Shown: positions 6,571-48,965, counted from the first letter of the stretch. The stretch: 64,000 bases of DNA from an uncultured delta proteobacterium (GCA_963832165.1 CAWHTE010000011.1:1-64000), one strand, 5' to 3'. Program-made: numbers and translations. Notes: generated by a model from the letters alone, not told the origin.

Positions 6571-6607
6571 CCCGGTGCGCCACCGCGAGGATCTGCCCAC
6601 GAGCGCC

Positions 6608-8228: not shown

Positions 8229-8250
8229 CCGCCTGCGAGAGGATGACGAC

Positions 8251-8470
8251 ATGCCGAAGTACCTGATGATCATCGTCGAAGACCAGTCGGCGTACCAGAA
8301 CCCCGAGAGCGCCACCATGAACGACGTGATGCAGCAGCACGGCGATTTCGCCGCCGCCGTCGAGGCGGCCGGCGCCAAGATGCTCGGCGGTGAAGCGCTG
8401 CAGCCGACGTCCACCGCGACCTACCTCCGCGGTACGCGCTCGGGAAACGTCACCGTCGTCGACAACCCCG
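8251..8470 (+). CDS. YciI family protein, 3' truncated at junction
   Basis: MPKYLMII..AGAKMLGGEALQPTSTAT..VTVVDNP, then the sequence character changes abruptly. Confidence 0.75.
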
Positions 8471-20007: not shown

Positions 20008-20741
20008 CAATCCTCGAGTAGATAGTCGACCGTGGACACCACGCGCACGGTCTTTTCGAGCTGGTTGTCCTCGGAAGCGCCCGGCACGCGGTCGCGCGGC
20101 AGGATCTCGAACGTACCCTGGTTCGCGCGCCGGATCGCTCCCACGCGGCTGCCCGAATCACGCGCGAACTGCTCGGCGCCCTCGCGCGCGCGCGCGGTCG
20201 CCTCGGCGATCATCTCGGGCTTGATCGCGTTGAGGCCCGAATAGATGTAGGTAGCGCCGCTCGAACGGTAGTCGTCGCTGCCCGAGGAGAGCACGACTCC
20301 CGCCTCGACGAGCTCGCCCACCTTCTCGGTCGCCGCATGGATCTTGTCGGGCTCCGTCGAGCGCACGACGAGCGTCTCGTTGATCACGTACCGGCTCCCC
20401 ACCGCGCGCTCGCTGCGGTACTGGTCCGCGTTGGCGTCGCGTACCGAGAACGCCTGCACCTGTGCGCTCTTGGGGTCGAGGCCGTGCCGGCCCAGGAACT
20501 CGCGGATCTTCTCGACGCTGCGCTGCAGGTCGCCGTGCGCCTTCGCGAGATCGTCGGCCGCCACCGAGAGACGCAGCGGCCAGATCGCGAGATCCGCGCG
20601 CACGTCGCGCTCCGAGACGCCCTTCACGGTCACGAAGCGATCGCCTGCGCGTGCCTGTGCGAAACCGTTCCCCACGAACCAGCCCGCCGCGGCGATCGCC
20701 GCGGCGAGCACGAGCGCGGCGAGCCGCCCGATCGAATCCAT
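20007..20741 (-). CDS. SIMPL (DUF541) domain protein
   Basis: [60 protein letters not shown]. Confidence 0.88.
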
Positions 20742-20767
20742 TGCTTCCCCCCGACCTTCGAAGTTGG

Positions 20768-22381
20768 CTAGCGCGGCGCGTCGATCAATACGCCCGGGTT
20801 CAGGATACCGGCCGGATCGAGCGCCGACTTCGCGGCGCGCAGCGCGGCTGCGAACGGGTCGGGGCGCTGGCGGTCGTACCAGGGACGGTGGTCGCGACCG
20901 ACCGCGTGGTGGTGGGTGATCGTGCCGCCGTGGCGCAAGAGCGCCTCGCTCGCGGCGTGCTTGATCTCGGCCCATTGATCGAGCTCGCTGCCTCGGCGGC
21001 CCGGCGCCATCACGGTGTAGTAGGGCGCGGGTCCGTCGGGATAGACGTGAGTGAAGCGGCACGTGACCGTGCCCGTGCCGCACACGCGCTTCACGGCGTC
21101 GCGCGTCGCTTCCATCACCGCGGCGTGGAAGGTCTCGAACGCGTCCCAGGGGATCGCGGTCTCGAACGTCTCGGAGACGAACGCCGCGCGCACGAGCGCA
21201 TCGCGCAGATAGGGAGCGTTCAGGAACGCGTTGCGCCACGCGCCCGCGGCGCCCTCGCGCGTCGCCACGTCGTCGGTGCGCGTGCGCAGCGCGTCGTCGG
21301 GTACGATGCCGCCCGCGTCGCGGCACAGCTCCGCCGCGCGCGCGATCCACGCGTCGAGCGCGTGGTCGGCGCTCTCGAAGCCGAGCACGAGCACGGCGGC
21401 CGTGCCGTCGCCGGCGCCCGCCGTGCGCGCTTCACCCGCATCGAGCAGGCGGCAGTTGCTCGGCGCGAGTCCCGACTGCGAGAGCGCGCGCACCGCCGCG
21501 GCGCCGCGCCCGAATCCGGCCTCGCCCTCGAAGCGCACCGACGCCGACGCGCGCATGCGCGGCCGGTCCTGCAGCCGCATCCACGCCTCGGTGATGATGC
21601 CGAGCGCTCCCTCCGAGCCCAGGAACATCCGGTCCGGGCTCGGCCCCGCGCCGGATCCGGGCAGCCGGCGGCTCTCCGCGACACCGGATGGGGTCACGAC
21701 GCGCATCGACTCGACGAAGTCGTCGATGTGGGTGTAGAGCGTGGCGTAGTGCCCGCCCGAGCGCGTGGCGAGCCAGCCGCCCAGCGTCGAGAACTCGAAC
21801 GACTGCGGGAAGTGGCGCAGCGTGAGGCCGTGCGGGCGCAACGCGTCTTCGAGCGCGGGGCCGTAGATACCCGCTTCGATGCGCGCGGCGCGCGACGTGC
21901 GGTCGATCTCGAGCACGCGCGAAAGGCGTCCGAGGTCGATCGAGATTGCTCCGGCGTAGCCTTCACCGACGCGCGCCTCGACGCCGCCCACCACGCTCGA
22001 TCCGCCGCCATACGGAATCGCTGCGACTCCGCGCTCGCCGCACCAGTCGAGCAGCGCCGACACCTCGGCCTCGTCGCGCGGCTCGGCCACGAAGTCGGGT
22101 GCGGGCGCGAAGTCGCCGCGCGCACCGCGCACGATGTCGCGATAGGACTTCCCGTAGGTGTGCGACGCGCGCGCGTGCGGGTCGGTCTTGCACAGCGCGG
22201 CGAGCGCACTCGGCGGCGCGACGCGCGGCGACGGCAGCGCGATGTCTTCGAGACGTGGCTCGGGCGCGAGCTCGACGGGCGCATCGAAGCGCTCCGCGAG
22301 CGTGTGCGCGATCCCGCGCGACTGCTCCTCGTTCGGGCCGTCCCCTTCGTTTCCCCAACCCCAGAACTTGCGGCGCGCCAT
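20768..22381 (-). CDS. FAD-binding oxidoreductase (alkyl-DHAP synthase-like)
   Basis: PYGGGSSVVGG, RHFPQSFEFSTLGGW, GSEGALG, HHHAVG, LNPG. Confidence 0.9.
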   Translation of the reverse strand: MARRKFWGWGNEGDGPNEEQSRGIAHTLAERFDAPVELAPEPRLEDIALPSPRVAPPSALAALCKTDPHARASHTYGKSYRDIVRGARGDFAPAPDFVAEPRDEAEVSALLDWCGERGVAAIPYGGGSSVVGGVEARVGEGYAGAISIDLGRLSRVLEIDRTSRAARIEAGIYGPALEDALRPHGLTLRHFPQSFEFSTLGGWLATRSGGHYATLYTHIDDFVESMRVVTPSGVAESRRLPGSGAGPSPDRMFLGSEGALGIITEAWMRLQDRPRMRASASVRFEGEAGFGRGAAAVRALSQSGLAPSNCRLLDAGEARTAGAGDGTAAVLVLGFESADHALDAWIARAAELCRDAGGIVPDDALRTRTDDVATREGAAGAWRNAFLNAPYLRDALVRAAFVSETFETAIPWDAFETFHAAVMEATRDAVKRVCGTGTVTCRFTHVYPDGPAPYYTVMAPGRRGSELDQWAEIKHAASEALLRHGGTITHHHAVGRDHRPWYDRQRPDPFAAALRAAKSALDPAGILNPGVLIDAPR

Positions 22382-35018: not shown

Positions 35019-35828
<810 letters not shown>

Positions 35829-35832
35829 GCGC

Positions 35833-36567
35833 TCAGCGTACCGCGGCGAGCTCCCGTTCGTACGCGGCCACCTCCGAGAGCCCGACTTGCTCGAGCAGCT
35901 CGGCGCGCTGCGCGCGTGCCGCTGAATCCTCGGGCGTCGCGGCGATGCGGGACGAGAGCGCGCGGATCGCGTCGTACCAGAGTCCGCTCTGAGCGTAGAC
36001 GGAAGCCTCGTTCGCTCCGCCGGCGGACAGACGCGCACCCAGTGTCTCGTCGGCGGCACGTCGTTCGATCCATGCTCCCGACGTGAAGTCGCGTGAGCGG
36101 CGTTCGGGGCTGGACACGAGCGAGACGAACCAGAGATACCGCGTACCGGTCTGGAGCTTCACTCCTAGATCCGCGAGACGCACGGCTTGGATGCCCGCCC
36201 GCGCGGGCGCCGGCAGGGCTACCTCGACGAGCGGCTCGATCGACGTCTCGTCGCGGATCGTGAACTCGATCTGCGTGGATGTGGGCTCGGCCAGATACCA
36301 GAACAAGGTGGGCTGATCCGAGGTGGTGTAGCCGAGGTGATCGGGCGCGAGGATCTGGACCCCGCTGAAGCGGCCCATGCCGCGAATCCCCGCGCCGATC
36401 CGCCGCGCCGGGAAGTCGGCCGGCGGGGCGACGTAGGTGAGGGTGGGCTTGCTCGCCGCGTTCGGCGATGGCTGCTCGCAGCCGGACCGGCTCGGCGCCA
36501 ACACCGACGATGCGATGACCAGGCCGACCGCGAACAGCAGTACGCGCGATCGATGTGTGGTGCTCAT
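35833..36567 (-). CDS. Exported DUF928-domain protein
   Basis: Signal-like N-terminus; RRIGAGIRG; LAPDHLGYTTSDQPTLFWY; YLWFVSL; YAQSGLWYDAI; LLEQVGL. Confidence 0.8.
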   Translation of the reverse strand: MSTTHRSRVLLFAVGLVIASSVLAPSRSGCEQPSPNAASKPTLTYVAPPADFPARRIGAGIRGMGRFSGVQILAPDHLGYTTSDQPTLFWYLAEPTSTQIEFTIRDETSIEPLVEVALPAPARAGIQAVRLADLGVKLQTGTRYLWFVSLVSSPERRSRDFTSGAWIERRAADETLGARLSAGGANEASVYAQSGLWYDAIRALSSRIAATPEDSAARAQRAELLEQVGLSEVAAYERELAAVR

Positions 36568-36890
36568 ATGCGCCTCACCCACCGCCCGTGGCTCGGTATA
36601 CCGCGCCTCGCTCCGACTGGCTCCTGAATACCGCCCCGCATCCGAGGCGGCGCGAGCCGGCCGCAGGCGCGCTCCTCGCCGCGGTCTCTCGCGCGGAGGG
36701 ATCCTCCTCGGTATTGGAAACAGTGGGACCACCTTCTTTTCTGTCAGGGAGGTCGTGACGCCGCGGCCTGCCTAGCGCGGCGGCCGCACGCGGAACTCCT
36801 GCGTTACTGGCGCAGCGGGTTGGAAGCGTGAGTCGCCCGGCTGGGACGCCGTCACGCGGCAGATGCCGACACCGCGTTTTGTCACAAGCC

Positions 36891-37874
36891 TCACGAGTGA
36901 AGACCTCGCTTCCGGGATGAGCGCAGCATTGCCAAGGCGACGATTCCCACGCCGAGCAGCGCCCCCGCGCCGGGCTCGGGAATGAAGGCGAGCCCGCGCG
37001 GACCATCGAGGCCGCCTCCGACGGCAAAGGAATCGATGAATGCGCCGGTGGTTCCGTCGTAGCGCAGCACCCGATCATTCTGGAAGTCGCTTAGGTACAG
37101 GTGGGCATCGGGATCGGGTCCAAATGCCAGGAAGCCGTTGGGATCTCCCGGGTGAGGATCTACCGGCAGGAGGAACGAGCCGAGTGGTGCGCCGGTCGTG
37201 CCGTCGAAACGCAGGACGTCGCCTTGGACAAACGCCAACAGATCTCCGTTCGGTGCAAAGATCACGTCACCGATATTGATGCCGGGTGCCGTCGTCGCGA
37301 AGACACCGAGATACGCGCCGCTCGTTCCGTCGAAGCGCAAGACCTGGAAGGTGTTCCAGCTGCCCACGTAGAGATTCCCGTCGCTTCCGAAGGCGAGACC
37401 GGCGGGGCCGTCCAAAGGCGATCCTGCGCCGATGGTTCCAAGCAACGTTCCAGTAGCGACATCGACGCGGAACACGTGGTCGTTGCTGAAGACGGACCCG
37501 TAGAGGTCGCCATCGGGGCCGAAGAGGATGTCGTTGATTTGGGGCGGGTAACCCGAAGTGACGACGTCGATGAAGGCCCCGGTGCTCCCGTCGAAGCGCT
37601 TGACGCTTGGGTTCGAGCCTCCGCCGCCCACGTAGAGGTTGCCGTCGGGCCCGAAAGTCAAGCCGCGGGGGGCCGCCTGAGCGGAGGCACCACTGACGAA
37701 ATTGCCGATGTACGCCCCGGTCGTTCCGTCATAGCGCTTCACCTCGTTGGTGAGATCGCTGTTGACCAGCAGATCGATCGGCGCTGCCTCCGCGGCACGG
37801 ACGACTCCGCCGACGCCGACCAGCACGGCCACCGCGACGACCCGTGACCTCCAGTTGGAATTCATTCGCGACAT
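36891..37874 (-). CDS. PEP-CTERM-sorted beta-propeller (NHL-like repeat) protein
   Basis: Signal peptide; six repeats of the type [YF]DGTTGA plus FGPDGNLY; C-terminal IPEPG + TM helix + basic tail. Confidence 0.85.
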   Translation of the reverse strand: MSRMNSNWRSRVVAVAVLVGVGGVVRAAEAAPIDLLVNSDLTNEVKRYDGTTGAYIGNFVSGASAQAAPRGLTFGPDGNLYVGGGGSNPSVKRFDGSTGAFIDVVTSGYPPQINDILFGPDGDLYGSVFSNDHVFRVDVATGTLLGTIGAGSPLDGPAGLAFGSDGNLYVGSWNTFQVLRFDGTSGAYLGVFATTAPGINIGDVIFAPNGDLLAFVQGDVLRFDGTTGAPLGSFLLPVDPHPGDPNGFLAFGPDPDAHLYLSDFQNDRVLRYDGTTGAFIDSFAVGGGLDGPRGLAFIPEPGAGALLGVGIVALAMLRSSRKRGLHS

Positions 37875-37932
37875 GGTTCCCTCCTCTGCAAGGAGGTCGT
37901 GGCTTCTCCGCGATCTGGATCAGCAGATCGCG

Positions 37933-40900
37933 CTACGGACACCCGGCAGACGCGAGCATCGGACCGGGCACCCCGGCGATCGGCGCCGCGGCCGCGACCA
38001 CGGGCGCCGGCAGCCACCCGTCGGGCTCGGCAGGAATCCCGCCCGCGCCGCGCATCGCGAACGTGCCCGCGCGTTCGCCACCGCGTGTGGCGCAGCGCTG
38101 CTGCATCTGCGACGCGGCGTCGAGGACCGAAGAGGGCAGGGGTGTAAGCGATCCCGCGAGATCGGCATCGGGGCTCGCGATCTCGACCGTGCCCGAGAGC
38201 TCCGGATTGCCGGAGGACGCGCTCACGATGCTGCCCGGGAATGCGAAGAAGTGGTCCGCGGCGATCCGGATGTGGCCGCCGGATCCCTCACCGGCCTGCG
38301 CCGTGATCCGGCTTCCGTTCTGGAGGATCACGACCTCGGGGTCGATCGCGATGTTGCCGCCGGTGCCTCCGGTCACGGAGGCGGTGATCGAGCCGTCGTC
38401 GAGGTGGACCCGGTTCTTCGCCTGAACCGTGATGTCACCTCCGTCCGCACTCACGGCGCTGGTCGCGATCGCGCCACCCACGACTCGGAGGGTGTCGCTC
38501 ACGAGCGTTACCCTTCCCGCGTCTCCGGTGGGGACTTCGGGAGGTTCCGCGAGGTAGCCGCGGAAGAAGTCGACCCACACGTCCAGCTCGCCGAAGCCCT
38601 GGGCGCTCTCCGCCGACACCGCGCCGCCGTCCGCGATCTCGATGTGCGGCGCGCGCAACGTCACGTCTCCGCCCGCTCCGTCGGCGCCGGTTCGGCTCGT
38701 GATGACGGAGTGCTCGCCTTCGACGCGGATCCGCTCGCCGGCCTCGATGTCGACGCTGCCCCCGTGCCCCGAGCCCAAGGTGCTCGCGGAGACCGCGCCC
38801 GCGCCGCGCACGATCACCTGGCCACCGGCGCTAGGAGCGATCAGTGTGACCTCGCCCGCTGCGCCCCCCCTTCCACCCTCGATCAGCGCTGCGGCTCCCG
38901 AGTTCACCGATCCACCGTCGATCAGGATGCGCGGCGCTGACAAGGTCACATGCCCCGCCGGTCCCTCGTTCGTGGTGTTCGAGCTCACTGCGCTCACGTC
39001 GCCGAAGCGCGAGTGCCCGACGACCTCGATCGACTCGCGGGCGTCGAGCGTGACCGCACCACCTTGTGCCGGCGTGAACATGGTGACGCCGGACACGACA
39101 CCGCCCGAGGCGATGCGGATGCGATCGCCCCGCAGCAGGATCGAGCCCCCGTCGCTCCCTCGGACCGTCGCCGAGGTCACCCAGGCGCCTTCTTCGACGG
39201 TAATCTCCGGGGCGTACAGCTCGATCGATCCGCCAAAGCCGCCGCGGGTTCCCGAGCCGATCCCCGTCAAGAGCACGGGCTCGTCCCGAAGGAGCGGGGT
39301 CCAGTCGAAGCGCGGGCCGTTCTCATCGGTGATCCGGATCGACTGTGATGCGTCGATCAGGACATTTCCGGCGTTTCCGGATCCGATGGCGGTCACGAAG
39401 ATTCCGGCCCCTTCCTCGCCGTCTTCGCGACCGGGACCGATCTGCACCGTGTCCGCACGGATGAGAACGTCCCCACCGTCACCCCCCGCCCCGAAGTTTG
39501 AACGAGCCACGATCTGGCCGCCGTCGCGGAGCTCGAGTGCACCCGCGTCGATCGTGATCGACCCGCGTGGGCCTGGACCGTTGTTGGCGGTGCTGATCGA
39601 GCCGTCGCGAACGGTCACCGTACCCTCGGTGCGGATAGCGATCGCGCCCGCGCCGCCCTGCGTGCCGGAATCGGCGCTGATCGTTCCGCCATCGACGCGG
39701 AGAGAGCCGGCATCGATCGCGATCGTGCCCGCGTCGCCGACGGAAGCGCGCGCACCGATGGAGGCGGAGTTCACGAGCTCGATCTCACCCAGGGCGCCGA
39801 TCGAGATCGCGCCGGCATCGCCAGTCCCCCCGGATTCGACGCCGATCGCGCCGTTCTCGACGCGCACGGAACCGGCATCGATCGCGATGCTGCCGCCCCG
39901 GCCTTCCCCGCCCGATATCGCGCTGATCGACGCGTTGTGGAGGCGGACGGAGTCCGCATCGACGGTGATCGTGCCGGCATCGCCCGATCGCCCCGACCGC
40001 GCGCTGACCGACCCAACGTCGATCGAGAGCGCGCCCGTGTCGATCGCGATCACACCGCCATCGCCGGATCCGCCGCCTCCCGCACTGATCGTGCCGTTTC
40101 TGAGCTCGAGCGAGCCGGCTTCGACTGCGATCGTGCCCGCATCGCCCAGTCGAGAATCGGCGAGGAGCAATCCCCGGTTCACGAGCTCGATCGGGCCGCC
40201 GCTCACGATTTCGATCGCTCCCGCGCTGCCCGCTGCCGAGCTGCTCACGGAGACCCGGCTGCTGTCGAAGCGCAGGGAATCGTTCGCGTCGATCTCGAGG
40301 CGCCCTGGGGTGGCGGAGTCGATGTTCTCCGCGAGCACCTGTGAGTGATCGATCACGATCTGGCCGCCGCGGATCGCGATCGTCCCTGCCGGCGCGCCGA
40401 GCGTGGTGCCGGTCAGCGCGATGTCGCCGCCGGCGAGCTCCAGTGTCTTTCCGGGCAGAACCGACAGCGCGCTGCCCGTCACATCGATGGGGGCCGCCAC
40501 AATCGTCTCGGGCAGGAAGCCGAACGCCGACGGTCGTGCTGTCGAGAGCACGCTCGAGAGCTGGAGCCTGGCGTCGAATCGGTCACCGCCCTCCTCGAAG
40601 CCGAGGTAGTCGGCGGTCGCAGCGTGGAACGAGCCCGGCACTTCGAGCCGGGCGCCCTCGCCGAATACGATGCCGCGCGGATTGAGCAGCCAGATGTCGG
40701 CGTCGGGCATCGTCGAGCGCAGCGTGCCGTCGATGTTGGACGGATCGCCTCCCGTGACGCGCGAGATCACGTTCTTGACGTGGTCGGGCCCCGTGAAGCT
40801 GGCGATCTCGCCGGTGCCGATCCCGAAGCGCGCGAAGCTGTGGAAGAGATTGTCTCCGCGCAGTGAGCCGAGGTCGTCGCTGATCAGGTAGTCGACCGTC

Positions 40901-41046
40901 TGGCCGGTCGGATCGATCCCCACGCCCACGTCGACGGCCGCACCGCCGAGCGATCCGTCGGTGGCGATCGCGTTCTGGGCTTCCGCCGGCGGCGATGCCA
41001 GGCCTACTACCCCAAACAACGCGAGCGATCGCGAGACGAGCTTCAT
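37933..41046 (-). CDS. Two-partner secretion exoprotein (TpsA, filamentous-haemagglutinin N-terminal domain)
   Basis: Signal peptide; NLFHSF, NVISRVTGG, LLNPRGIVFG TPS motifs; long GDAGTIAI-type beta-helix repeats. Confidence 0.9.
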   Translation of the reverse strand: MKLVSRSLALFGVVGLASPPAEAQNAIATDGSLGGAAVDVGVGIDPTGQTVDYLISDDLGSLRGDNLFHSFARFGIGTGEIASFTGPDHVKNVISRVTGGDPSNIDGTLRSTMPDADIWLLNPRGIVFGEGARLEVPGSFHAATADYLGFEEGGDRFDARLQLSSVLSTARPSAFGFLPETIVAAPIDVTGSALSVLPGKTLELAGGDIALTGTTLGAPAGTIAIRGGQIVIDHSQVLAENIDSATPGRLEIDANDSLRFDSSRVSVSSSAAGSAGAIEIVSGGPIELVNRGLLLADSRLGDAGTIAVEAGSLELRNGTISAGGGGSGDGGVIAIDTGALSIDVGSVSARSGRSGDAGTITVDADSVRLHNASISAISGGEGRGGSIAIDAGSVRVENGAIGVESGGTGDAGAISIGALGEIELVNSASIGARASVGDAGTIAIDAGSLRVDGGTISADSGTQGGAGAIAIRTEGTVTVRDGSISTANNGPGPRGSITIDAGALELRDGGQIVARSNFGAGGDGGDVLIRADTVQIGPGREDGEEGAGIFVTAIGSGNAGNVLIDASQSIRITDENGPRFDWTPLLRDEPVLLTGIGSGTRGGFGGSIELYAPEITVEEGAWVTSATVRGSDGGSILLRGDRIRIASGGVVSGVTMFTPAQGGAVTLDARESIEVVGHSRFGDVSAVSSNTTNEGPAGHVTLSAPRILIDGGSVNSGAAALIEGGRGGAAGEVTLIAPSAGGQVIVRGAGAVSASTLGSGHGGSVDIEAGERIRVEGEHSVITSRTGADGAGGDVTLRAPHIEIADGGAVSAESAQGFGELDVWVDFFRGYLAEPPEVPTGDAGRVTLVSDTLRVVGGAIATSAVSADGGDITVQAKNRVHLDDGSITASVTGGTGGNIAIDPEVVILQNGSRITAQAGEGSGGHIRIAADHFFAFPGSIVSASSGNPELSGTVEIASPDADLAGSLTPLPSSVLDAASQMQQRCATRGGERAGTFAMRGAGGIPAEPDGWLPAPVVAAAAPIAGVPGPMLASAGCP

Positions 41047-41162
41047 CCACGAATCCTGGTGGCGCCATTCTAAACCGGGTCGGTTGCAAAGAGATCCCTT
41101 GAAAAGGTCGTTAAATCTCGACGATTCGGATCACGCGCCTGACTCCGCATCATCCGTAATTC

Positions 41163-41192
41163 TTGACCGGCCGGATTTCGCGGCCTTAGCAT
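41163..41192 (+). promoter_or_regulatory. Possible sigma70 promoter of the CHAT gene
   Basis: TTGACC-N18-TAGCAT; favours the ATG at 41209 as the start. Confidence 0.4.
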
Positions 41193-41208
41193 GCTCGGGG
41201 GTTGCTCG

Positions 41209-43362
41209 ATGCATCGAATTGGCCCGCTCGCGGCCGCCTTCTGCCTGCTCGCCGGGATGAATGCCGCTGGCGCGGACGGCGAGCCCACACGAGAGGTGTC
41301 GCCGCTGATCCGCGAGGCCGAAGCCCTGCAGGCGCTCGGCCGCTATGCGGATTCACTCGACAAGCTCGCGGAGGCCGACGCGGCCGCAGGCGCGAAGGCC
41401 GACCCCGCTCAGCGAGCCGCGATCGAAGGCGCGATCGGCAACGCCTACATCGCACTGGGCCCACCTGCGGCGGCGCGCGAGCACCTGACGAAGGCGCTCG
41501 ATCTGGCGCGCCGCGCCGCGGCCGAGCCGCTTGCCGCGGCGCTGCTCGTCAACCTCGGAAACCTCGACGCGTCGCAGGGGTCGTACGCCGAAGCGGCGCG
41601 CGGCTACACCGAAGCCGCAGCGCTGGCCGAGAAGTCGGGCGACCGCGCCCTCGCCGCGCGCGCCCATGCGAACCGAGCGCAGGCCGCGCAGCGCGGCGGA
41701 GCGCGGGACGGCGAGGTGCGCACGGCGCTCTCCCGCGCGACCGAGCTCGCAGACAACCTGCCCGAGTCGTCGGCGAAGGCCGATGTGTTGATCAACGCCG
41801 GCCGGACCTACGCCCGGCTCGGCGACCTGGAGCCGGCGCATGCAACGCTGCGTCGTGCGCAGAGTGCCGCTGAGGCGATCGACGACACGCGCACGCAATC
41901 GTACGCACTCGGATACCTCGGGGCCCTCTACTACGACCAGGGCAGGCTCGAGGAAGCGCTCGATCTCTCCCGCCGCGCGCTCTTCCTCGCGCAGCGCGCG
42001 AATGCACCCGAGTCGCTCTATCGCTGGCACTGGCAGGTGGGCCGGATCCTCGCCCGTCAACGCAAGCCCGCAGAGGCGATCGCGTCCTATCAGCAGGCGC
42101 TGACGGTGCTATCGACGATCCGCTTCGACATGGCACACGGCTACGCGACCGGCGGCGCGTCGTTCCGCGAGACGGTCGGGCCGGTCTTCTTCGAGCTCGT
42201 GGACCTGCTGCTCGCGACGGCACCGAGCAGCGAGAAGACCGACGCCTATCAGGCGCGTCTGCACGAGGTGCGCGACACGCTCGAGCGGCTCAAGGCCGCG
42301 GAGCTGCGCGACTACTTCGGCGACGAGTGCGTCGACGCGCTCCAGGCGAAGGTCGAGAGCCTCGATCGGGTCGCGCGCGCCGAGGTCGTGATCTACCCGG
42401 TCGTACTGCCGGACCGGCTCGAGCTCCTGCTCACGTTCCCGAACGGCATACGGCGCGCGACCGTGCCGGTCGGCGCCGAGACGCTCTCGGCGGAAGTGCG
42501 GACGCTGCGCCGCCTCCTCGAGAAGCGCACAACGCTGCAATTCCTTCCGCACGCCCAGAAGGTCTACGACTGGCTCGTGCGTCCCTTCGCATCCGATCTC
42601 GAGAGCGTTTCCACCAGCACGCTCGTCTTCGTTCCGGACGGTCCGCTTCGCACGATCCCGATCGGCGCGCTGCACGACGGGAAGCGCTTCCTGATCGAGA
42701 CATACGCCGTTGCCACGTCGCCGGGGCTCAGCCTCACCGATCCACGACCGCTCGAACGGCACGAGCTGAGCGCGCTCCTGATAGGCCTGAGTCGATCGGT
42801 GCAGGGTTTCCCGCCGCTCGCGCACGTGCCCGATGAGCTCGACTCGATTCGCGCGCTCTACGGCGGCGAGGTACTGCTGAATCAGCAGTTCCTGATCCCG
42901 CGTGTCGAGGCGGAGCTCAGCGGGCGTGAGTTCAGCGTGGTCCACGTGGCCACGCACGGCGAATTTTCGGAGGACGCCGAGCGCTCGTTCCTGCTCGCCT
43001 GGGACGGCCGGATCAGCATGGATCGCCTGGGCGAGGTGATCGGAGCGGGCCGCTTTCGCGATCGGCCGATCGAGCTGCTCACGCTATCGGCCTGCGAGAC
43101 GGCGGAGGGCAGCGAGCGCGCCGCGCTCGGCCTGGCGGGTGTGACGGTCCGCGCCGGCGCGCGCAGCGCGGTCGGGACGCTCTGGAGCGTGAACGACGCC
43201 GCGGCAGCCGACCTGATCGGCGAGTTCTATGGGCAGCTGCATTCGAGCCCGGTCTCGAAGGCGGTGGCGCTGCAGCGTGCGCAGCAGAAGGTATTGCGCG
43301 ACGTGAACCACGCGCATCCGTACTACTGGGCGCCGTTCTTGTTGATCGGGAACTGGTTGTGA
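41209..43362 (+). CDS. TPR-CHAT (caspase-like, clan CD) protease with signal peptide
   Basis: MHRIGPLAAAFCLLAGMNAAGA; TPR array; FVPDGPL; catalytic HVATHG and LSACETA; TLWSVND; HPYYWAPF. Confidence 0.92.
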   Translation: MHRIGPLAAAFCLLAGMNAAGADGEPTREVSPLIREAEALQALGRYADSLDKLAEADAAAGAKADPAQRAAIEGAIGNAYIALGPPAAAREHLTKALDLARRAAAEPLAAALLVNLGNLDASQGSYAEAARGYTEAAALAEKSGDRALAARAHANRAQAAQRGGARDGEVRTALSRATELADNLPESSAKADVLINAGRTYARLGDLEPAHATLRRAQSAAEAIDDTRTQSYALGYLGALYYDQGRLEEALDLSRRALFLAQRANAPESLYRWHWQVGRILARQRKPAEAIASYQQALTVLSTIRFDMAHGYATGGASFRETVGPVFFELVDLLLATAPSSEKTDAYQARLHEVRDTLERLKAAELRDYFGDECVDALQAKVESLDRVARAEVVIYPVVLPDRLELLLTFPNGIRRATVPVGAETLSAEVRTLRRLLEKRTTLQFLPHAQKVYDWLVRPFASDLESVSTSTLVFVPDGPLRTIPIGALHDGKRFLIETYAVATSPGLSLTDPRPLERHELSALLIGLSRSVQGFPPLAHVPDELDSIRALYGGEVLLNQQFLIPRVEAELSGREFSVVHVATHGEFSEDAERSFLLAWDGRISMDRLGEVIGAGRFRDRPIELLTLSACETAEGSERAALGLAGVTVRAGARSAVGTLWSVNDAAAADLIGEFYGQLHSSPVSKAVALQRAQQKVLRDVNHAHPYYWAPFLLIGNWL

Positions 43363-43371
43363 AGCTGCAAT

Positions 43372-43404
43372 GGCGGGATGCGCTTCGCTTTCCCGCCCTA
43401 CGAG
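43372..43404 (-). repeat. GTAG-type REP, family 1, copy 2
   Basis: GGCGGGATGCGCTTCGCTTTCCCGCCCTACGAG between convergent genes; near identical to 47970-48002. Confidence 0.8.
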
Positions 43405-43405
43405 A

Positions 43406-44701
43406 TCAACGACTTCGCTCGAACGCCGCCGCGTCGGTAAGGCCGACCTGGTCGAGCAATGCCGCCCTGTGCGCGTGAAGCCGCGCCGCTTCGGGCTCGG
43501 CGGTGATCCAGCTGCACAGCTGATCGAACGCATCGTACCAGTAGCCCGACTCGGCATAGAGATGTGCGGCGCTCCCCGGAGCGGGCGCCGAGAGGCGCGC
43601 GGCGATCTCACCGGTGGGCGGCGCATAGCGGATCGCCCCCCCCGACACCACATCCTGCGAACGTCGCTCGGGGTTGCGCACGAGCGCGACGAACCATCGA
43701 TAGTCGACGCCCGATCGCAGCTGGACCGCGCGCGCAGCCAGGTCCAAACGGTGCACACCGGCCTCGTGCGGCCCGGGCAGCATCGCTTCCAGCAGCGGCT
43801 CCGACGCACTCGGGTCGACGATCGTCACCTCGACCGACAGCGGTGTCGGATCCGACAGGAACCAGTAGAGGGATGGAGATCCGTGCGAGGTCGCTCCTAC
43901 CTGCGCGGGGCTCAATGCCAGGGGAGGCGCGATCTCGGCTGCGGCGTTCCGCGTGGCATCCCCGACGCGAACGGAGGGTCCAGCCGCGAGCGCGCCGGGC
44001 GCGTAGAGCGGAGGTTCCGCGGGGACCAGCGCGGCGATCTGGATCGCGCCAGGCGGCTCGGCCGGCTCCGTCGTCTCCTCCGCGACGACCGCGGGCGCGG
44101 GGCGGGCCGGCAGGGCAGGCAGCTGTGGCGGCGCGGGTAGCGTCGTTAGTTCGGGTTCGGGTGGTGCTGGAGAGGGCGCTACCTCGGGCGGTGCTGCCGG
44201 CGGGCCGGGCTCGACCTTCGCCACGGGCGCAGGGGAAACCGGCGGAGTCTCGCGCGCCGGGCGCGAGAGCAGCACGGCCACCGGGATCGCGATCACCGCG
44301 ATGACGGCGGCCGCGAGTGCAGGCCACCACCGCGCCGTGGCGCGCCTATCGCGCGCGCGTGGGCGCGCCGCGGAAACCGCGGCGAAGTCGAAGCGCTGCA
44401 ACACGGCGAGCTCGGTGCGGCAGGCCGGGCAATTCGCGAGATGCGTTTCGAGCCGCGCACGTTCGTTCGGGGCCAGATGCGACGACGGCGATGCCAACGC
44501 GATGAGCTCGGCCTCGGATGCATGCGCCGCGCCCGCGCCGTCGGGCGATCCCAGGGCCGCCTTCAACGCCGCGAAGTCGCCTACCGCGCGCGAGCAGTCC
44601 GGGCAGATCGGATAGTGATCGCGGAATTCCGTCCACGCCGCCGCGTGCGGGTCGACGGCGAACTCAGCGAGATCGATGTCCCGAGCCCTGGTGCAGCGCA
44701 C
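43406..44701 (-). CDS. Putative anti-sigma factor: two HxxxCxxC zinc motifs, one TM helix, Pro-rich linker, C-terminal DUF928 domain
   Basis: HYPICPDC and HLANCPAC; WWPALAAAVIAVIAIPVAVLL; PSLYWFL..YRWFVAL..YAESGYWYDAF..LLDQVGL; directly downstream of an ECF sigma gene. Confidence 0.82.
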   Translation of the reverse strand: MRCTRARDIDLAEFAVDPHAAAWTEFRDHYPICPDCSRAVGDFAALKAALGSPDGAGAAHASEAELIALASPSSHLAPNERARLETHLANCPACRTELAVLQRFDFAAVSAARPRARDRRATARWWPALAAAVIAVIAIPVAVLLSRPARETPPVSPAPVAKVEPGPPAAPPEVAPSPAPPEPELTTLPAPPQLPALPARPAPAVVAEETTEPAEPPGAIQIAALVPAEPPLYAPGALAAGPSVRVGDATRNAAAEIAPPLALSPAQVGATSHGSPSLYWFLSDPTPLSVEVTIVDPSASEPLLEAMLPGPHEAGVHRLDLAARAVQLRSGVDYRWFVALVRNPERRSQDVVSGGAIRYAPPTGEIAARLSAPAPGSAAHLYAESGYWYDAFDQLCSWITAEPEAARLHAHRAALLDQVGLTDAAAFERSR

Positions 44702-44774
44702 CCGGCCCCCTCCCCATCACTCGGATGCAGTGTCGTTTCCACCCATGGAGGCCGTGGGCGGCGGCCGAATCAGA

Positions 44775-45329
44775 TCACTTTTCATCGCGGTGCTCCCGGA
44801 GAGCCTCCCGGAGCTCCGCGAGGCCATCCCGCAGGTACCGCTTGAGCGTCCCCAGCGGGATGCCGTTCGCCAGGGCCGCCTCCTCATAGGTCTGGCCTGC
44901 CCCATAGACGGCCACCACGAGATCGCGCTTCTTGTCGGAAATCTTTGCGAGCGCGCGCCGGAGGTCTTCGCGCGCTTCGGCTTCGAGCTGAACGGCGCGC
45001 GGGCTCTCGTCGCTGGCGATCACCTCTTCCCATGCGAGGTCCTTGCGTTGATTCAGCACGATTCTGAGTCGGTCTAAATACTTGAATCGTGCCGTCGTCT
45101 TGAGGAAGGCGACGATCGCCTGCGGGTCTCGCAGTCTGCCCGCGCGCACCGCCAAGGCTGCGGCGGCAATCACCTCTTGCACGACGTCCTCCCATTCGTC
45201 GCGAAAGTCGTAGGCGTTCCAGCGCACGAGGAAACCGTTCACGAGGCGGCTCGTCTGCGCGAGAGCCAGTCGATCGCCGGCGATCACCCGGTTCACCACC
45301 GCGATCCAGTCCCGCTCCTGCACCGACAC
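44775..45329 (-). CDS. ECF sigma-70 factor
   Basis: EDVVQEV, FKYLDRLR (region 2); TYEEAALANGIPLGTLKRYLRDGLAELR (region 4). Confidence 0.88.
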   Translation of the reverse strand: MSVQERDWIAVVNRVIAGDRLALAQTSRLVNGFLVRWNAYDFRDEWEDVVQEVIAAAALAVRAGRLRDPQAIVAFLKTTARFKYLDRLRIVLNQRKDLAWEEVIASDESPRAVQLEAEAREDLRRALAKISDKKRDLVVAVYGAGQTYEEAALANGIPLGTLKRYLRDGLAELREALREHRDEK

Positions 45330-45390
45330 CCGGCCAGCCTATCAAAAGGCCTTGCCGGACCGAGGATCGATCGTGTGATAATGCGGCTTC

Positions 45391-47124
45391 GTGTCCGCGG
45401 CGTGGCACAGGCGTCGATCCACGTGCGTGTCGGCGCTGTTCGCGGCGGCGTTCGCGTCGACGCCGGCCCGGGGACAGGTACCTCGCATCCCGTTCGAGCG
45501 CCCGGGAGATGTCCGACCCGAGGCCGAGTTACGGACACCCGAAGAGCGGCCGCACTTCACGCTTCCTCCAGTACCGCCGCCGACCGGCGAGGGGCCTCTT
45601 TCGGAGCACGCGCGCGTGGTCGCGCGCCAGTTCGTGGTGATCGGCAGCACGGTCTTCTCGGATCAAGAGCTCGCCGCCGTCACGGCGCCATACATCGGGC
45701 GTCCCCTGGCGGCCGAAGACCTCGAACATCTCCGCCAGCAGCTGACATTGCTCTACGTGAACGAGGGCTACCTGAATTCCGGAGCGCTGCTTCCCGATCA
45801 GCAGATCGAGGACGGGGTGATCCGATATCAGATCGTCGAGGGTCGGCTCACCGACGCCACCATCGAGGGGAACCGCCGGTTCCGCGATCGCTATCTCGAA
45901 AGTCGCATCCTGCGCGGCGCCGACACACCGCTCGACGTCTCGAAGCTCGCGGAACAGCTCGAGCTGCTCCAGCAGGACGCGCGCATCCGCCACATCGAGG
46001 CGGAGCTCTTGCCCGGCGAGCGCCCCGGCGAAGCGCGTCTGCGGACGACCTTCGAAGAGGAGTCTCCGCTGTTCGCTGCGCTGGAATTCAGCAACCACGA
46101 CTCACCGAGCGTCGGCCAGACCCGAATGCAAATTGACCTGGGCAATCACAACCTGACGGGCTGGGGCGACGCGCTTCGCGCCATGGGGGCGTGGAACCTG
46201 GGGCTGTGGGAGGGAGAGGTCGAATACGAGATCCCGATTACGCGGTGGGACACGAAGATCGGCGCGCGATTCCACTACGGCTCGAGCGAAGTCGTCGAGG
46301 AGCCTTTCGACGCGATCGACATCACGAGTCGGGAGCGCACGATCGCGATCGACGTGAGCCAGCCCCTGTACGAATCCGTGCGAAACCGGCTCGGCATCGG
46401 GCTCACTGCCGAATATCGCGAGACCAAGACCTATCTGCTGGACGAACTGTTTCCATTCGAGGAAGGAACCGACGACGGCCAGGTCGTCGTGAGCGTGATT
46501 CGCGCGAGCCAGGTATGGCTCTATCGCGACCTCAGACAGGTGATTTCCGCGCGGTCACAATTCAGCCTGGGCGTCGACGCGCTCGGTGCGACCACCGATC
46601 GGTGCGCATTCGATCTGAGCGGCGTGTGCACGAAGCGCGCTGGCATCCCGGATGCACACTTTCTCGCGTGGCTCGGCCAACTCCAGCTCGTGCGCCGCTT
46701 CGATCCATGGGGAATCGAGCCGGTCTTCCGCACCGATGTCCAGCTCGCAACGGAGCCGCTCTTCTCGCTCGAGCAATACGCCGTGGGTGGTCATCACACC
46801 GTTCGCGGCTACCGCGAGAACCAGCTCGTGCGCGACAACGGGCTTACGTCGTCGCTCGAGGTGCGCATTCCCGTCTGGACCGATGCCGCGCGCGAGCTGA
46901 CCGTGCAGCTCGCCCCGTTCTGCGACGCCGGCCGCTCGTGGAACCGCAAACGCGACGAGGTCAGCCCGCGCACGCTCGCGAGCGTGGGCGTCGGACTGCG
47001 CACGTCCTGGCGGCGCCTGCACGGAGAGCTCTTCTGGGGGCATCGCATCGAGCGAGTCGACAAGCCCGACGATCACACCCTCCACGACGAGGGCGTGCAC
47101 TTCGCGATCGCGGCGCGCTTCTGA
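45391..47124 (+). CDS. TpsB transporter (ShlB/FhaC/HecB family)
   Basis: POTRA domain GSTVFS..LYVNEGYLNSGA..IVEG; VRGY loop motif (TVRGYREN); C-terminal F. Confidence 0.92.
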   Translation: MSAAWHRRRSTCVSALFAAAFASTPARGQVPRIPFERPGDVRPEAELRTPEERPHFTLPPVPPPTGEGPLSEHARVVARQFVVIGSTVFSDQELAAVTAPYIGRPLAAEDLEHLRQQLTLLYVNEGYLNSGALLPDQQIEDGVIRYQIVEGRLTDATIEGNRRFRDRYLESRILRGADTPLDVSKLAEQLELLQQDARIRHIEAELLPGERPGEARLRTTFEEESPLFAALEFSNHDSPSVGQTRMQIDLGNHNLTGWGDALRAMGAWNLGLWEGEVEYEIPITRWDTKIGARFHYGSSEVVEEPFDAIDITSRERTIAIDVSQPLYESVRNRLGIGLTAEYRETKTYLLDELFPFEEGTDDGQVVVSVIRASQVWLYRDLRQVISARSQFSLGVDALGATTDRCAFDLSGVCTKRAGIPDAHFLAWLGQLQLVRRFDPWGIEPVFRTDVQLATEPLFSLEQYAVGGHHTVRGYRENQLVRDNGLTSSLEVRIPVWTDAARELTVQLAPFCDAGRSWNRKRDEVSPRTLASVGVGLRTSWRRLHGELFWGHRIERVDKPDDHTLHDEGVHFAIAARF

Positions 47125-47234: not shown

Positions 47235-48965
47235 GTGGAAGCACTCGCGGTGGTCCGGGCGTTCGACGCGCCCGATGCAGAGGATCGCCTCATCGAGCTG
47301 GCGCGCTCGGGAGCGCCGCTGCGCAGAGTGCTCGCGGCATTGGCCGGGCGGCTCGCCGCGACGCGCGCGTGGGATCGGCTCGGCTACGTGCGGCTGCGCG
47401 ACTACGCGGTCGAGCGGCTCGGTCTGTCAGCCCGCCAGGTGCAGGATCTCGCGCACGTCGATCGCGAGCTGCGTGGGCTGTCCGGCATCGACGCCGAGTT
47501 CGTCGCCGGACGGATCACGTGGACGAAGGCGCGGCTCCTGTGCCGGGTCGCGACGCCCGAGGACGAGGAGGCGTGGCTGGATCTGGCCCAGCGCCTGACC
47601 GCGCGCGCTCTCGCACGCGAGGTGCGCGCGGTGGATGCGCGGTCACTCGAAGCGGGCGGGTTGCTCGACAGCGACGAGGACGGCGTCGAAGACGTGCCGC
47701 GCGAGACGATCTGGCTATCCGTGACTCCGCGCGTGCGCGCGCGCTGGAGTCGCGCGCGGCTGCTCGCGCGCCGGGTCGCTGGGGAGGCGCTGTCGCAAGC
47801 CGCGGTGGCCGAGGTGATTTCTGCGGAAGTGATCTCGGCGATCGGCGTCGATGGGGATCCCAGGCTCGCCACGCCGCTTTACCTTTCGCGACCTGCAGTT
47901 CCGGGGCACGGTAGTCGTAGGGCGGGAGGAGCGGAAGGCGGATCCCGCCTTCCGCGGCTGGTACCTGATGACGGGATGCGCTGCGCTTTCCCGCCTTACG
48001 AGCTGCCGGCATTCCTCGCACCGCTCGTCGAGGGCCTCGAGTCCTGCGACGCGATCGAACTCGACGCGCGGCTGCGGCGGGCGCTGCGGATCGAACAGCG
48101 GTGGCTCGCGGAGATCGGCCCGCTGCTGCGCGAGGTCGCGCGCACGCGGAGCTACCGGTTCCGCGGCAGTCCGAATCTGGCGGTGTTCGCACGCGAGCGG
48201 CTCGGCGTGTCTCCGCGCAAGGCGCAGGCGCTGCTGCGGCTCGAGCGAGCCTGCGCGAATTCGCCGGAGCTGCGCGCCGCGTTCTCGAGCGGTCGCCTGT
48301 CCTGGGTACAGGCCCACGCGTTGATACCGATCGTCGTGCTCGAGCACGCCGAGCCGTGGCGCGCGGCGTGGGTGGCACACGCTGAGTCGGTCTCGGTGCG
48401 CCGCCTCGAGGAGGACGTGGAGCGCGCGATCGTCACCGGCGATCTCGAGGTGCAAACGGGTGCGCACTCCACGGTCGAAAAATCACAAGAGGAGTGCCTC
48501 GCGAATCAGAAAGGCATGGCCAGCCTGTTCTTTGCCGCATCCGCCGACGGGGCGCGCCTGTTCAAGGCGGTCCTCGCGACCGCACAGCGGCGGATCGAGC
48601 GGCGGAACGGCCGCACGGCGAGCGAGAGCGAGGCGCTCGACGCGATGCTCGAGCACTGCTTCGAGACCTGGACGCTGCCGAACGCAAAGGTGCAGCGCGA
48701 GCATCGCGTGTTCGAGCGCGACGGCTGGCGCTGCACGGTGCCAGGTTGCTCGTCCTTCCGGAACCTGCACGACCACCACGTCCAGTTCCGATCGGCGGGT
48801 GGCTCCAACGAGCTCTGGAATCGCACCACGCTTTGCGCGGCGCACCATCAGCGCAGCGTGCACGCGGGAATCGGGCGGATTCGCATCCGCGGCCGCGCGC
48901 CCGACGGGCTGCGCTTCGAGCTGCCGCTCCTAACTTATGGCCCGGGAGAACGGATTCTCCGCTGA
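47235..48965 (+). CDS. HNH endonuclease with a duplicated DUF222-like N-terminal domain
   Basis: RDGWRCTVPGC..HDHH..GGSNELWNRTTLCAAHH; two homologous blocks ERLGLSAR..GRITW and ERLGVSPR..GRLSW. Confidence 0.85.
   Translation: MEALAVVRAFDAPDAEDRLIELARSGAPLRRVLAALAGRLAATRAWDRLGYVRLRDYAVERLGLSARQVQDLAHVDRELRGLSGIDAEFVAGRITWTKARLLCRVATPEDEEAWLDLAQRLTARALAREVRAVDARSLEAGGLLDSDEDGVEDVPRETIWLSVTPRVRARWSRARLLARRVAGEALSQAAVAEVISAEVISAIGVDGDPRLATPLYLSRPAVPGHGSRRAGGAEGGSRLPRLVPDDGMRCAFPPYELPAFLAPLVEGLESCDAIELDARLRRALRIEQRWLAEIGPLLREVARTRSYRFRGSPNLAVFARERLGVSPRKAQALLRLERACANSPELRAAFSSGRLSWVQAHALIPIVVLEHAEPWRAAWVAHAESVSVRRLEEDVERAIVTGDLEVQTGAHSTVEKSQEECLANQKGMASLFFAASADGARLFKAVLATAQRRIERRNGRTASESEALDAMLEHCFETWTLPNAKVQREHRVFERDGWRCTVPGCSSFRNLHDHHVQFRSAGGSNELWNRTTLCAAHHQRSVHAGIGRIRIRGRAPDGLRFELPLLTYGPGERILR
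47915..48001. repeat. 87-bp REP doublet (REPIN/BIME-like) within the HNH reading frame
   Basis: TCGTAGGGCGGGA ... TCCCGCCTTACGA, 12/13 inverted match; each half matches an intergenic REP elsewhere in the window. Confidence 0.85.

Follow-up and report, generated by a model that had tools for sequence, protein, structure and literature searches.

The closest published relative of the system described here is DdvS/DdvA of Myxococcus xanthus, in which DdvA, the transmembrane anti-sigma factor of a sigma factor belonging to the extracytoplasmic function (ECF) group, carries its own periplasmic TPR-CHAT domain. The model proposed for it is CHAT-mediated clipping of the linker followed by RseP, and the account available describes its active site as incomplete, without a three-helix motif, and its role as the control of a CBASS (cyclic-oligonucleotide-based antiphage signalling system)/CRISPR defence island (PMC11506125). 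Comparable logic is found in type III-E CRISPR, where the TPR-CHAT protease Csx29 cleaves Csx30, an inhibitor of CASP-sigma, and in the DegS/RseA/RseP sigma-E pathway, where outside-in signalling proceeds by stepwise proteolysis of a single-pass anti-sigma factor (both as outlined in PMC10028731). Here we analyse a stretch of 64,000 nucleotides from an uncultured soil myxobacterium (GCA_963832165.1, CAWHTE010000011.1:1-64000; referred to as the window throughout), in which positions 35833-47124 hold genes for an ECF sigma factor, an anti-sigma factor ending in a DUF928 domain, an exported TPR-CHAT protein and both partners, TpsA and TpsB, of a two-partner secretion (TPS) system. A preliminary description, made from the sequence alone, had listed seven genes in this region, and profile searches against Pfam and NCBIfam confirmed all of them with their positions and identities. 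The observation behind that description was confirmed, and its interpretation was partly supported.

With DdvS/DdvA the locus shares, as far as the published account goes, the phylum, the ECF sigma factor, a single-pass zinc-finger anti-sigma factor and a periplasmic TPR-CHAT moiety proposed as the site-1 protease. The first zinc module of the anti-sigma factor has the C-H-C-C pattern described for DdvA (PMC11506125), and the structural model of the window's CHAT protein matches the cryo-electron microscopy chains 8rw5/8rot over its whole length (E 2.2e-11, TM score 0.50). In DdvA, however, TPR-CHAT is fused to the anti-sigma factor, whereas here it is encoded by a separate gene with its own signal peptide and the 431-residue anti-sigma polypeptide carries DUF928. 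Furthermore, the N-terminal anti-sigma domain matches that of DdvA by sequence only at E 0.41, and the partners here are TpsA, TpsB and a beta-propeller protein, with no cas genes in the cassette and no defence genes nearby in the window. Because the protease is not part of the anti-sigma factor, the locus represents a split variant of protease-gated anti-sigma signalling, with a DUF928 docking domain and a secretion arm, and such a variant is not described in the literature searched. The preliminary description had presented it as a CRISPR-independent relay from caspase to sigma factor; with DdvA already published, a relay of this kind is less unprecedented than that wording implied.

The Craspase of type III-E CRISPR resembles the locus in that a TPR-CHAT protein acts on the inhibitor of an ECF-like sigma factor; it is unlike it, according to the published outline, in being cytoplasmic and activated by RNA via Cas7-11, the cassette described here being periplasmic and equipped with a canonical zinc-finger transmembrane anti-sigma factor. 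With DegS/RseA/RseP and with cell-surface signalling (Prc/RseP), the shared feature is the scheme of stepwise anti-sigma proteolysis, and a full-length RseP-type M50 protease (210 bits) is encoded in the window's genome. Unlike those pathways, the candidate for the site-1 step is a caspase-fold CHAT protein and not a serine protease, the sensor would be DUF928, and TpsB/TpsA would stand as outer-membrane partner where the others have a TonB-dependent transducer or misfolded porins.

A resemblance of function only links the locus to LapD/LapG-CdrA/CdrB of Pseudomonas aeruginosa, which likewise has a cysteine protease in the periplasm, an inner-membrane partner whose periplasmic domain binds that protease, and a TpsA-type surface protein retained by its C-terminal end; in that account LapG is no CHAT protease and LapD is a cyclic di-GMP receptor that signals from inside to outside (PMC4694147). 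Pfam scans of the window's genes found no LapD or LapG family, the whole genome not having been searched for them. CHAT or caspase genes are also known to recur beside ECF sigma genes, with a regulatory link proposed in print: ECF54, with CHAT-TPR neighbours, is actinobacterial, has no recognised anti-sigma factor and is accompanied by subtilases (supplement of PMC7826278), and EACC2-caspase neighbourhoods combine multidomain caspases with an ECF sigma factor and DUF1822, a different constant module (PMC8195603). Neither involves DUF928 or two-partner secretion as far as these sources describe them. The main text of the ECF re-classification mentions no CHAT, DUF928, POTRA or ShlB, a scope from which a late-numbered ECF group matching the window's sigma factor could have escaped. 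Clusters of TPS, CHAT, DUF928 and CHASE2 genes had been called known in the preliminary description; they match loci reported below, and our literature search found no paper that describes them or that connects DUF928 to CHAT, to CHASE2 or to two-partner secretion.

The cassette proteins

Genes were picked by third-position G+C in this region of about 70% G+C and then checked against Pfam and NCBIfam. The sigma gene (44775-45329, minus strand) encodes regions 2 and 4 only (Sigma70_r2 and Sigma70_r4) and scores above the ECF model cut-off (TIGR02937, 57.3 bits against 42.9), which identifies it as an ECF sigma factor; its nearest solved relative is RpoE of R. sphaeroides (2q1z_A, E 4.7e-9), the partner of ChrR. 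It lies 73 bp upstream of the anti-sigma gene (43406-44701, minus strand), whose product combines a zf-HC2 domain (E 9.6e-5) with a C-terminal domain that Pfam identifies as DUF928 (E 7.7e-29), as had been proposed. A database search with this protein gave 72 matches, most of them full-length zf-HC2+DUF928 proteins of 430-510 residues. About 55-65 full-length proteins of this architecture were found in all, and those that are named are labelled Myxococcota.

[quoted passage not shown] Eight residues (C3, H29, C33 and C36 in the first module, H60, H87, C91 and C94 in the second) are invariant in 25/25 sequences and are putative zinc ligands. The second module can be aligned to the anti-sigma domains in ChrR and RslA and, weakly, in DdvA, and sequence comparison of the domain with solved structures gave weak matches to the same three (RslA E 0.018, ChrR E 0.11, DdvA E 0.41). 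In the AlphaFold 2 (AF2) model, residues 1-100 (window 44400-44701, minus strand) form two small helical bundles. In other genomes of the phylum, proteins that lack DUF928 are matched as well by this N-terminal region (model positions 1 to about 250).

The anti-sigma factor has no N-terminal signal and a single hydrophobic 19-mer at residues 128-146, modelled as a helix at 126-146. The model (mean predicted local distance difference test, pLDDT, 84) continues with a disordered proline-rich linker at about 150-215 and a well-ordered DUF928 domain (pLDDT 94-98). To our knowledge, the zinc-finger domain is cytoplasmic in all class I anti-sigma factors; with a single transmembrane helix and a cytoplasmic zinc-finger domain, DUF928 therefore faces the periplasm. 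Searches of DUF928 against solved structures by sequence gave no match, and its nearest solved fold is the C-terminal domain of MtxA of Magnetospirillum (PDB 4z29, E 2.6e-4, target TM score 0.60), described as an Ig-like sandwich with a TPR-like helical bundle (PMC4439547). Signal-like N-termini, with basic residues ahead of a hydrophobic stretch, are seen on the CHAT protein, TpsA, TpsB, the propeller and the free-standing DUF928 protein, and not on the sigma factor. The exported protease would accordingly be expected to share a compartment with the DUF928 domain of the anti-sigma factor.

The CHAT gene occupies an open reading frame (ORF) at 41191-43362 on the plus strand, and the corresponding database protein of 717 residues places its start at 41209; this is one of two starts that had to be moved from the preliminary description, the other being that of the free-standing DUF928 gene (to 36567), the genes themselves being real. 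The product begins with a signal peptide, followed by TPR families and a CHAT domain (E 6.3e-56). His583 and Cys629 form a dyad that is invariant in 67/67 aligned homologues. The AF2 model (pLDDT 86.9, predicted TM score 0.85) gave whole-length fold matches in Foldseek to Csx29, the best of them (E 5.4e-17), to separase (E 1.4e-11) and to DdvA, and it shows the N-terminal TPR superhelix joined to CHAT that characterises the separase-craspase type. We take the protein to be a putative TPR-CHAT (caspase-fold) protease with an intact dyad. Its family is large: of the 8,000 candidates scored, at least 1,492 are homologues with E <= 1e-30. By sequence alone, the CHAT profile met only TPR proteins among solved structures in the 60 of 110 matches listed.

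TpsA (37933-41046, minus strand; 1037 residues) starts with a signal-like N-terminus and a TPS domain (Pfam E 1.4e-30; TIGR01901 69 bits, cut-off 29), as in type Vb secretion, and continues into beta-helix repeats. TpsB (45391-47124, plus strand) has a signal peptide, POTRA (POTRA_2 E 1.1e-17) and an Omp85-type barrel (ShlB E 4.6e-24). The C-terminal segment of TpsA was aligned for the window (37933-38350, minus strand) and for loci L003, L004, L005, L008, L013, L016-L019 and L021 of the survey presented below. A first cysteine in a C-A-x-R-like context is present in 11/11 sequences and a second, a few residues from the C-terminus, in 10/11 (absent in L018), and the segment occurs in loci with a sigma factor as well as in loci with CHASE2. 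This two-Cys end may form a disulfide loop that stays in the periplasm, reminiscent of the 'cysteine hook' of CdrA, and by analogy with FhaB and CdrA it could remain within reach of the protease. We also considered TpsA as a contact-dependent toxin; this was dropped, as it has no recognisable toxin domain and its C-terminus is the segment conserved across the module.

Conservation of the cassette and its apparent exchange with CHASE2

A scan with one genome per species gave 31 loci, to which three stretches from a survey of the phylum were added, one of them a duplicate of L004 that was dropped; neighbourhoods were typed by tblastn with the window's proteins and by Pfam scans of the neighbouring genes. 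In 15 loci other than the window, a sigma gene lies directly upstream of a gene for the anti-sigma-DUF928 fusion, and the sixteenth of the fused loci, L002, has just the anti-sigma gene on its 1,960-bp contig. CHAT was found in 10 of the 15 (partial in L013, at a contig end), TpsA in 10 and TpsB in six, so that the sigma pair co-occurs with at least one of the three in 12, in agreement with the association proposed for the window. The co-occurrence holds over a range of sigma identities of 68% to 44%. Identity to the window's proteins drops in parallel for sigma, anti-sigma, CHAT and TpsB from one locus to the next, a pattern to be expected if the set is inherited as a unit. The conserved core consists of five genes, namely those for the ECF sigma factor, the anti-sigma-DUF928 fusion, the exported TPR-CHAT protein, TpsA and TpsB; the propeller and the free-standing DUF928 gene, counted earlier among seven, are not part of the set.

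The order of these genes varies. L016 and L017 (and L013, up to its contig end) have sigma, anti-sigma, tpsA, tpsB and CHAT on one strand, while L005, L008 and L042 have sigma, anti-sigma, CHAT, an FG-GAP gene and tpsA (L007 follows this order until its contig breaks off and has no tpsA). Several loci have the whole set on a single strand, with short gaps between the genes. In the window they are arranged as four transcription units. Full-length fusions occur in 17 of 401 sampled genomes of the phylum, the window's genome included, and all 17 belong to the same order of Myxococcota. No longer fused DUF928 forms (756-2155 residues) were found, which is weak evidence. As to a single origin of the fusion, the best topology of the DUF928 tree needs four changes, and a constraint that holds the fused domains together is not rejected (approximately unbiased test, p-AU 0.134).

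Mobile-type genes are inserted within the cassette of relatives, encoding HEPN, a MazE-like antitoxin, an AAA/DUF4143 ATPase and HicA/HicB (L001:3636-4043, 6482-6787 and 7242-8384; L004:5637-6311). A further comparison concerns L014:9305-11581 and L016:9286-18107, which have common flanks, with a trypsin-like protease, a subtilase and an HDOD protein upstream and a Zip transporter downstream; L016 has tpsA, tpsB and CHAT in addition, and L014 looks like a natural deletion, the difference between the two being a loss or gain of the protease and secretion arm.

The preliminary description had noted the absence of a CHASE2 gene and an anti-sigma factor standing in its place. Using the genome's own CHASE2-cyclase as tblastn query, we found CHASE2 beside 12 of 17 free-standing DUF928 loci and in none of the 16 fused loci, nor in the window. 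These free-standing loci come from Nitrospirales, several Gammaproteobacteria, Thiomargarita, a cyanobacterium and some Myxococcota, and nine of the 17 have CHAT and/or TPS genes. Beside DUF928, the fused anti-sigma factor and CHASE2 are mutually exclusive, a distribution that suggests the anti-sigma factor as substitute for the CHASE2 receptor on the output side. By inference from these gene sets, DUF928 would be a portable module of the periplasm, feeding into a transducer in the membrane (CHASE2 in trans, an anti-sigma factor in cis). The CHASE2-DUF928-CHAT-TPS sets use the same CHAT, DUF928, TpsA and TpsB families as the cassette; with CHASE2 missing and DUF928 fused to the anti-sigma factor here, the output would be transcription and not a cyclic nucleotide.

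Both types are present in the window's genome. On contig 7, a gene for a CHASE2-guanylate cyclase is followed directly by a DUF928 gene (L039:4864-7662), and a second cluster encodes TpsB, a PPC-domain protein, TpsA and TPR-CHAT (L038:7820-15306); these two sets are unlinked, about 465 kb apart. A fourth DUF928 gene of the genome is found at L040:7950-8288. This raises the question of how the genome keeps two protease/DUF928 sets apart.

Predicted CHAT-DUF928 contact and its possible meanings

An interaction between CHAT and DUF928 had been proposed from the gene content, and it is predicted by a model of the complex between mature CHAT and residues 215-431 of the anti-sigma factor, which scored 0.81 (runs 0.81, 0.82 and 0.81) against 0.03 for the best control. 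The runs share at least 74% of their contacts, with a partner pLDDT of 87. The mark applied to such scores is reached by 116/157 solved complexes and 2/215 mismatched pairs, counts that give only a rough calibration here because the complex was built from custom alignments. At the core of the modelled interface, a conserved and well-ordered CHAT loop, E438-K-R-T-T-L-Q-F-L-P447, between helices 423-438 and 446-456, rests on one face of the DUF928 beta-sandwich (residues 291-305 and 337-352). In a second patch, the DUF928 loop 242-247, which includes R245, meets CHAT residues 630, 633, 659-661 and 663, of which E630 and E633 adjoin the catalytic C629. Among the contact residues of CHAT, E438-K-R-T-T442 are 88-97% conserved and W659 and D663 100%; among those of DUF928, the values are 99% for R245, 97% for P302, 96% for R347 and 97% for D350. 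The prediction of this contact is strong. It speaks for binding close to the active-site face, but does not discriminate between a substrate, a pseudo-substrate and a docking partner.

These results suggest a conserved envelope cassette in which CHAT docks on DUF928 and likely clips or unmasks the anti-sigma factor, with intramembrane proteolysis then freeing the sigma factor; we give this reading a probability of roughly 45%. TpsA would be threaded through TpsB with its two-Cys C-terminal segment kept in the periplasm, where it may serve as input to the protease or as a second substrate. The protease, docked on the DUF928 domain of the anti-sigma factor as predicted, would carry out the site-1 step by clipping or unmasking that factor near the conserved Arg245 loop, after which the RseP-type protease and cytoplasmic proteases could free the sigma factor, following the DegS/RseA and DdvA models. 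Events at the secreted surface filament would in this way likely switch the sigma factor on.

Several observations weigh against this reading. Three of the 15 loci (L014, L020 and L041) have the sigma and anti-sigma-DUF928 genes without CHAT or TPS genes in the available DNA; the contigs of L020 and L041 (the latter from the same genus) are 7 kb and 11.7 kb long, but L014 has the full 10 kb on both sides, so that the sigma pair can evidently be maintained with no protease gene linked to it. The Arg loop is also retained in free-standing DUF928 proteins, which have no membrane anchor, and binding rather than cleavage may therefore be the ancestral function of DUF928; cleavage is, even for DdvA, presented as a proposal in the account available (PMC11506125). 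Conservation at the modelled interface does not exceed that elsewhere in the two proteins (Mann-Whitney p 0.15, CHAT; p 0.37, DUF928), H583 and C629 themselves are absent from the list of confident contacts, and the complex score expresses the model's own confidence and is no measurement. Finally, no ECF-type promoter common to the cassette genes was found.

The main rival explanation follows the LapD/LapG precedent: the CHAT substrate would be the periplasmic C-terminus of TpsA, whose cutting frees the filament from TpsB, and DUF928 would be a docking or sequestering receptor that remains uncut, the anti-sigma factor reporting the protease-bound state, for example by being protected from or exposed to other proteases. 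In its favour are the conserved two-Cys segment of TpsA in sigma-type and CHASE2-type loci alike, the parallel of periplasmic LapG, which cleaves the TPS adhesin CdrA off the cell and is sequestered by inner-membrane LapD (PMC4694147), and the lack, in free-standing DUF928 proteins, of any anchor from which a cut could release them. The modelled interface can be read both ways: its main part, loop 438-447 on the beta-sandwich, is a docking-type contact, but the contacts at 630, 633, W659 and D663 are less easily reconciled with a remote docking site than with a substrate or pseudo-substrate. A further point against it is that LapD signals from inside to outside, of which an anti-sigma factor is not obviously capable. 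We consider this explanation unlikely overall. The loop with the invariant R245, which lies in the interface near neighbours of the active site, would also suit a pseudo-substrate, and separase is held by the pseudo-substrate securin (PMC11506125, in the account available). By this comparison DUF928 would be an inhibitor or chaperone that holds the protease inactive at the inner membrane, and the sigma pair would respond by way of its zinc fingers to a cue in the cytoplasm (redox, on the pattern of ChrR or RsrA) and only set expression levels. The zinc-binding, ChrR/RslA-type anti-sigma domain, the tandem duplication of its zinc module and the kinship of the sigma factor with R. sphaeroides RpoE are all in keeping with that idea. 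Against it, the exchange of CHASE2 and anti-sigma factor points to DUF928 feeding a membrane transducer and not only inhibiting a protease, and the long disordered proline-rich linker with a single transmembrane helix is the usual build of an outside-in anti-sigma factor; we rate it as very unlikely.

It could also be that an ordinary ECF pair merely sits beside an ordinary two-partner secretion system and a protease, with no shared mechanism. The three loci that lack CHAT and TPS genes, the four transcription units of the window and the missing common ECF-type promoter would all follow from this. Yet mere adjacency is hard to square with co-occurrence in 12/15 loci over sigma identities of 68%-44%, with sigma, anti-sigma, CHAT and TpsB identities falling together, or with the mutual exclusion of CHASE2 and the fused anti-sigma factor beside DUF928, and the complex score of 0.81 stands against controls of at most 0.03; we give it only a very small chance.

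A broader proposal can be built on the reading in which docked CHAT leads to release of the sigma factor. DUF928 would be a dedicated receiver for exported TPR-CHAT proteins, and the TPS-CHAT-DUF928 family one pathway with exchangeable outputs (CHASE2 cyclases in many phyla, an ECF sigma factor with a zinc-finger anti-sigma factor in this order of Myxococcota), with TpsA, secured in TpsB by its two-Cys C-terminal segment, reporting surface events to the periplasmic protease and the cut at the Arg245 loop a caspase-type counterpart of DegS-RseA. In its full extent we find this proposal quite unlikely. If the docking is real, however, DUF928 would gain its first concrete partner and exported bacterial CHAT proteases their first concrete job. 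The wider CHASE2 module would also become easier to study, since a sigma-dependent reporter can be followed far more simply than a cyclic-nucleotide signal whose trigger is unknown, and the mechanism proposed for DdvA, with a caspase-like site-1 protease, would exist in split form as well, wired to a secreted surface filament.

Promoter boxes, accessory genes and flanks

Both divergent intergenic regions named in the preliminary description are present, one between tpsA and the CHAT gene (41047-41208) and one of 61 bp between the sigma gene and tpsB (45330-45390). The former contains a sigma-70-like site, TTGACC-18-TAGCAT, at 41163-41192, the sole such site in 12 kb (0.7 expected by chance), and a ATTCGGATCA-type box at 41124-41133. 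Upstream of the CHAT gene, L001 has both this box and TTGACC again, and L003 has the box; there are five exact copies of it in the genome, none near other module genes. In L001 the CHAT promoter region occurs twice, flanking the HEPN insertion. The 61-bp region carries a box on each strand: the -10-like TGATAGGCT at 45336-45344 (minus strand), 6 nt before the sigma start codon, and TGTGATAAT at 45374-45382 (plus strand), 8 nt before the tpsB start. The pattern TGWTAGSYT occurs once in the window (0.49 expected by chance), and a -10-like box lies about 6-14 nt from the sigma start in 13/14 loci inspected, L004 being the one in which it was not seen. The boxes before the sigma and tpsB genes suggest leaderless mRNAs from back-to-back promoters. 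Those before the sigma, CHAT and tpsB genes look housekeeping-like and leave so little room ahead of the start codons that leaderless transcripts would result. The ECF11 motif, GTGATC / CGTA as given in PMC7826278, was tried as cassette promoter and gave no consistent pair.

The free-standing DUF928 gene (35833-36567, minus strand; Pfam E 2.5e-35) lies in an ORF that extends up to 36732, with an ATG at 36567 as its likely start, followed by a signal peptide. The DUF928 (PF06051) matches of the two window proteins, 122.3 and 101.2 bits, are well above the Pfam gathering score of 26. The product is an exported paralogue of the outer domain of the anti-sigma factor, with 42.6% identity, and groups in the tree with the CHASE2-adjacent DUF928 of the same genome (support 87/91). 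A free-standing copy beside the fused cassette was seen in one of the 15 other loci (L041).

Next to it, a gene at 36891-37874 (minus strand) encodes an NHL/DUF6923 beta-propeller (DUF6923 E 3e-10, NHL E 3.8e-5). The PEP-CTERM tail ascribed to it is visible in the sequence as an IPEP motif, a hydrophobic stretch and a basic tail, but its Pfam score of 16.7 bits is below the cut-off of 20.7; exosortase genes are present in the genome. Among the 15 other fused loci, 14 gave no match to this propeller and L003 gave two, whereas a propeller-type or FG-GAP neighbour of some kind is present in seven (L003:4580-7519 and 18997-21240; L004:3583-5571; L005:14096-16855; L007:14936-16705; L008:14206-16977; L020:3736-7029; L042:14138-18139). 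A large secreted propeller-type protein is, with the window and these seven, a recurrent but variable neighbour of the cassette; elsewhere it is of the FG-GAP type, in some cases with ASPIC/UnbV or TSP_3, or a propeller fused to a carboxylesterase, and in the window it is of the NHL type with PEP-CTERM.

The housekeeping flanks were borne out as well. On the left lies xth (35019-36059, minus strand; Exo_endo_phos E 1.4e-33), and speA, with three arginine decarboxylase domains, forms the right flank. The HNH gene reported at the right edge is an ORF of 576 residues (47235-48965, plus strand) with coding-type composition (third-position G+C 0.83) and no Pfam family at E <= 0.01. Its HNH signal, at residues 490-545, is only weak (Pfam HNH E 0.039); in NCBIfam, it is matched at E 3.7e-8 by the HNH portion of the IscB model, with a score below that model's cut-off. 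Third-position G+C is lower in the cassette genes (0.77-0.86) than in the housekeeping flanks (0.88-0.96), which may reflect a different history or a lower level of expression.

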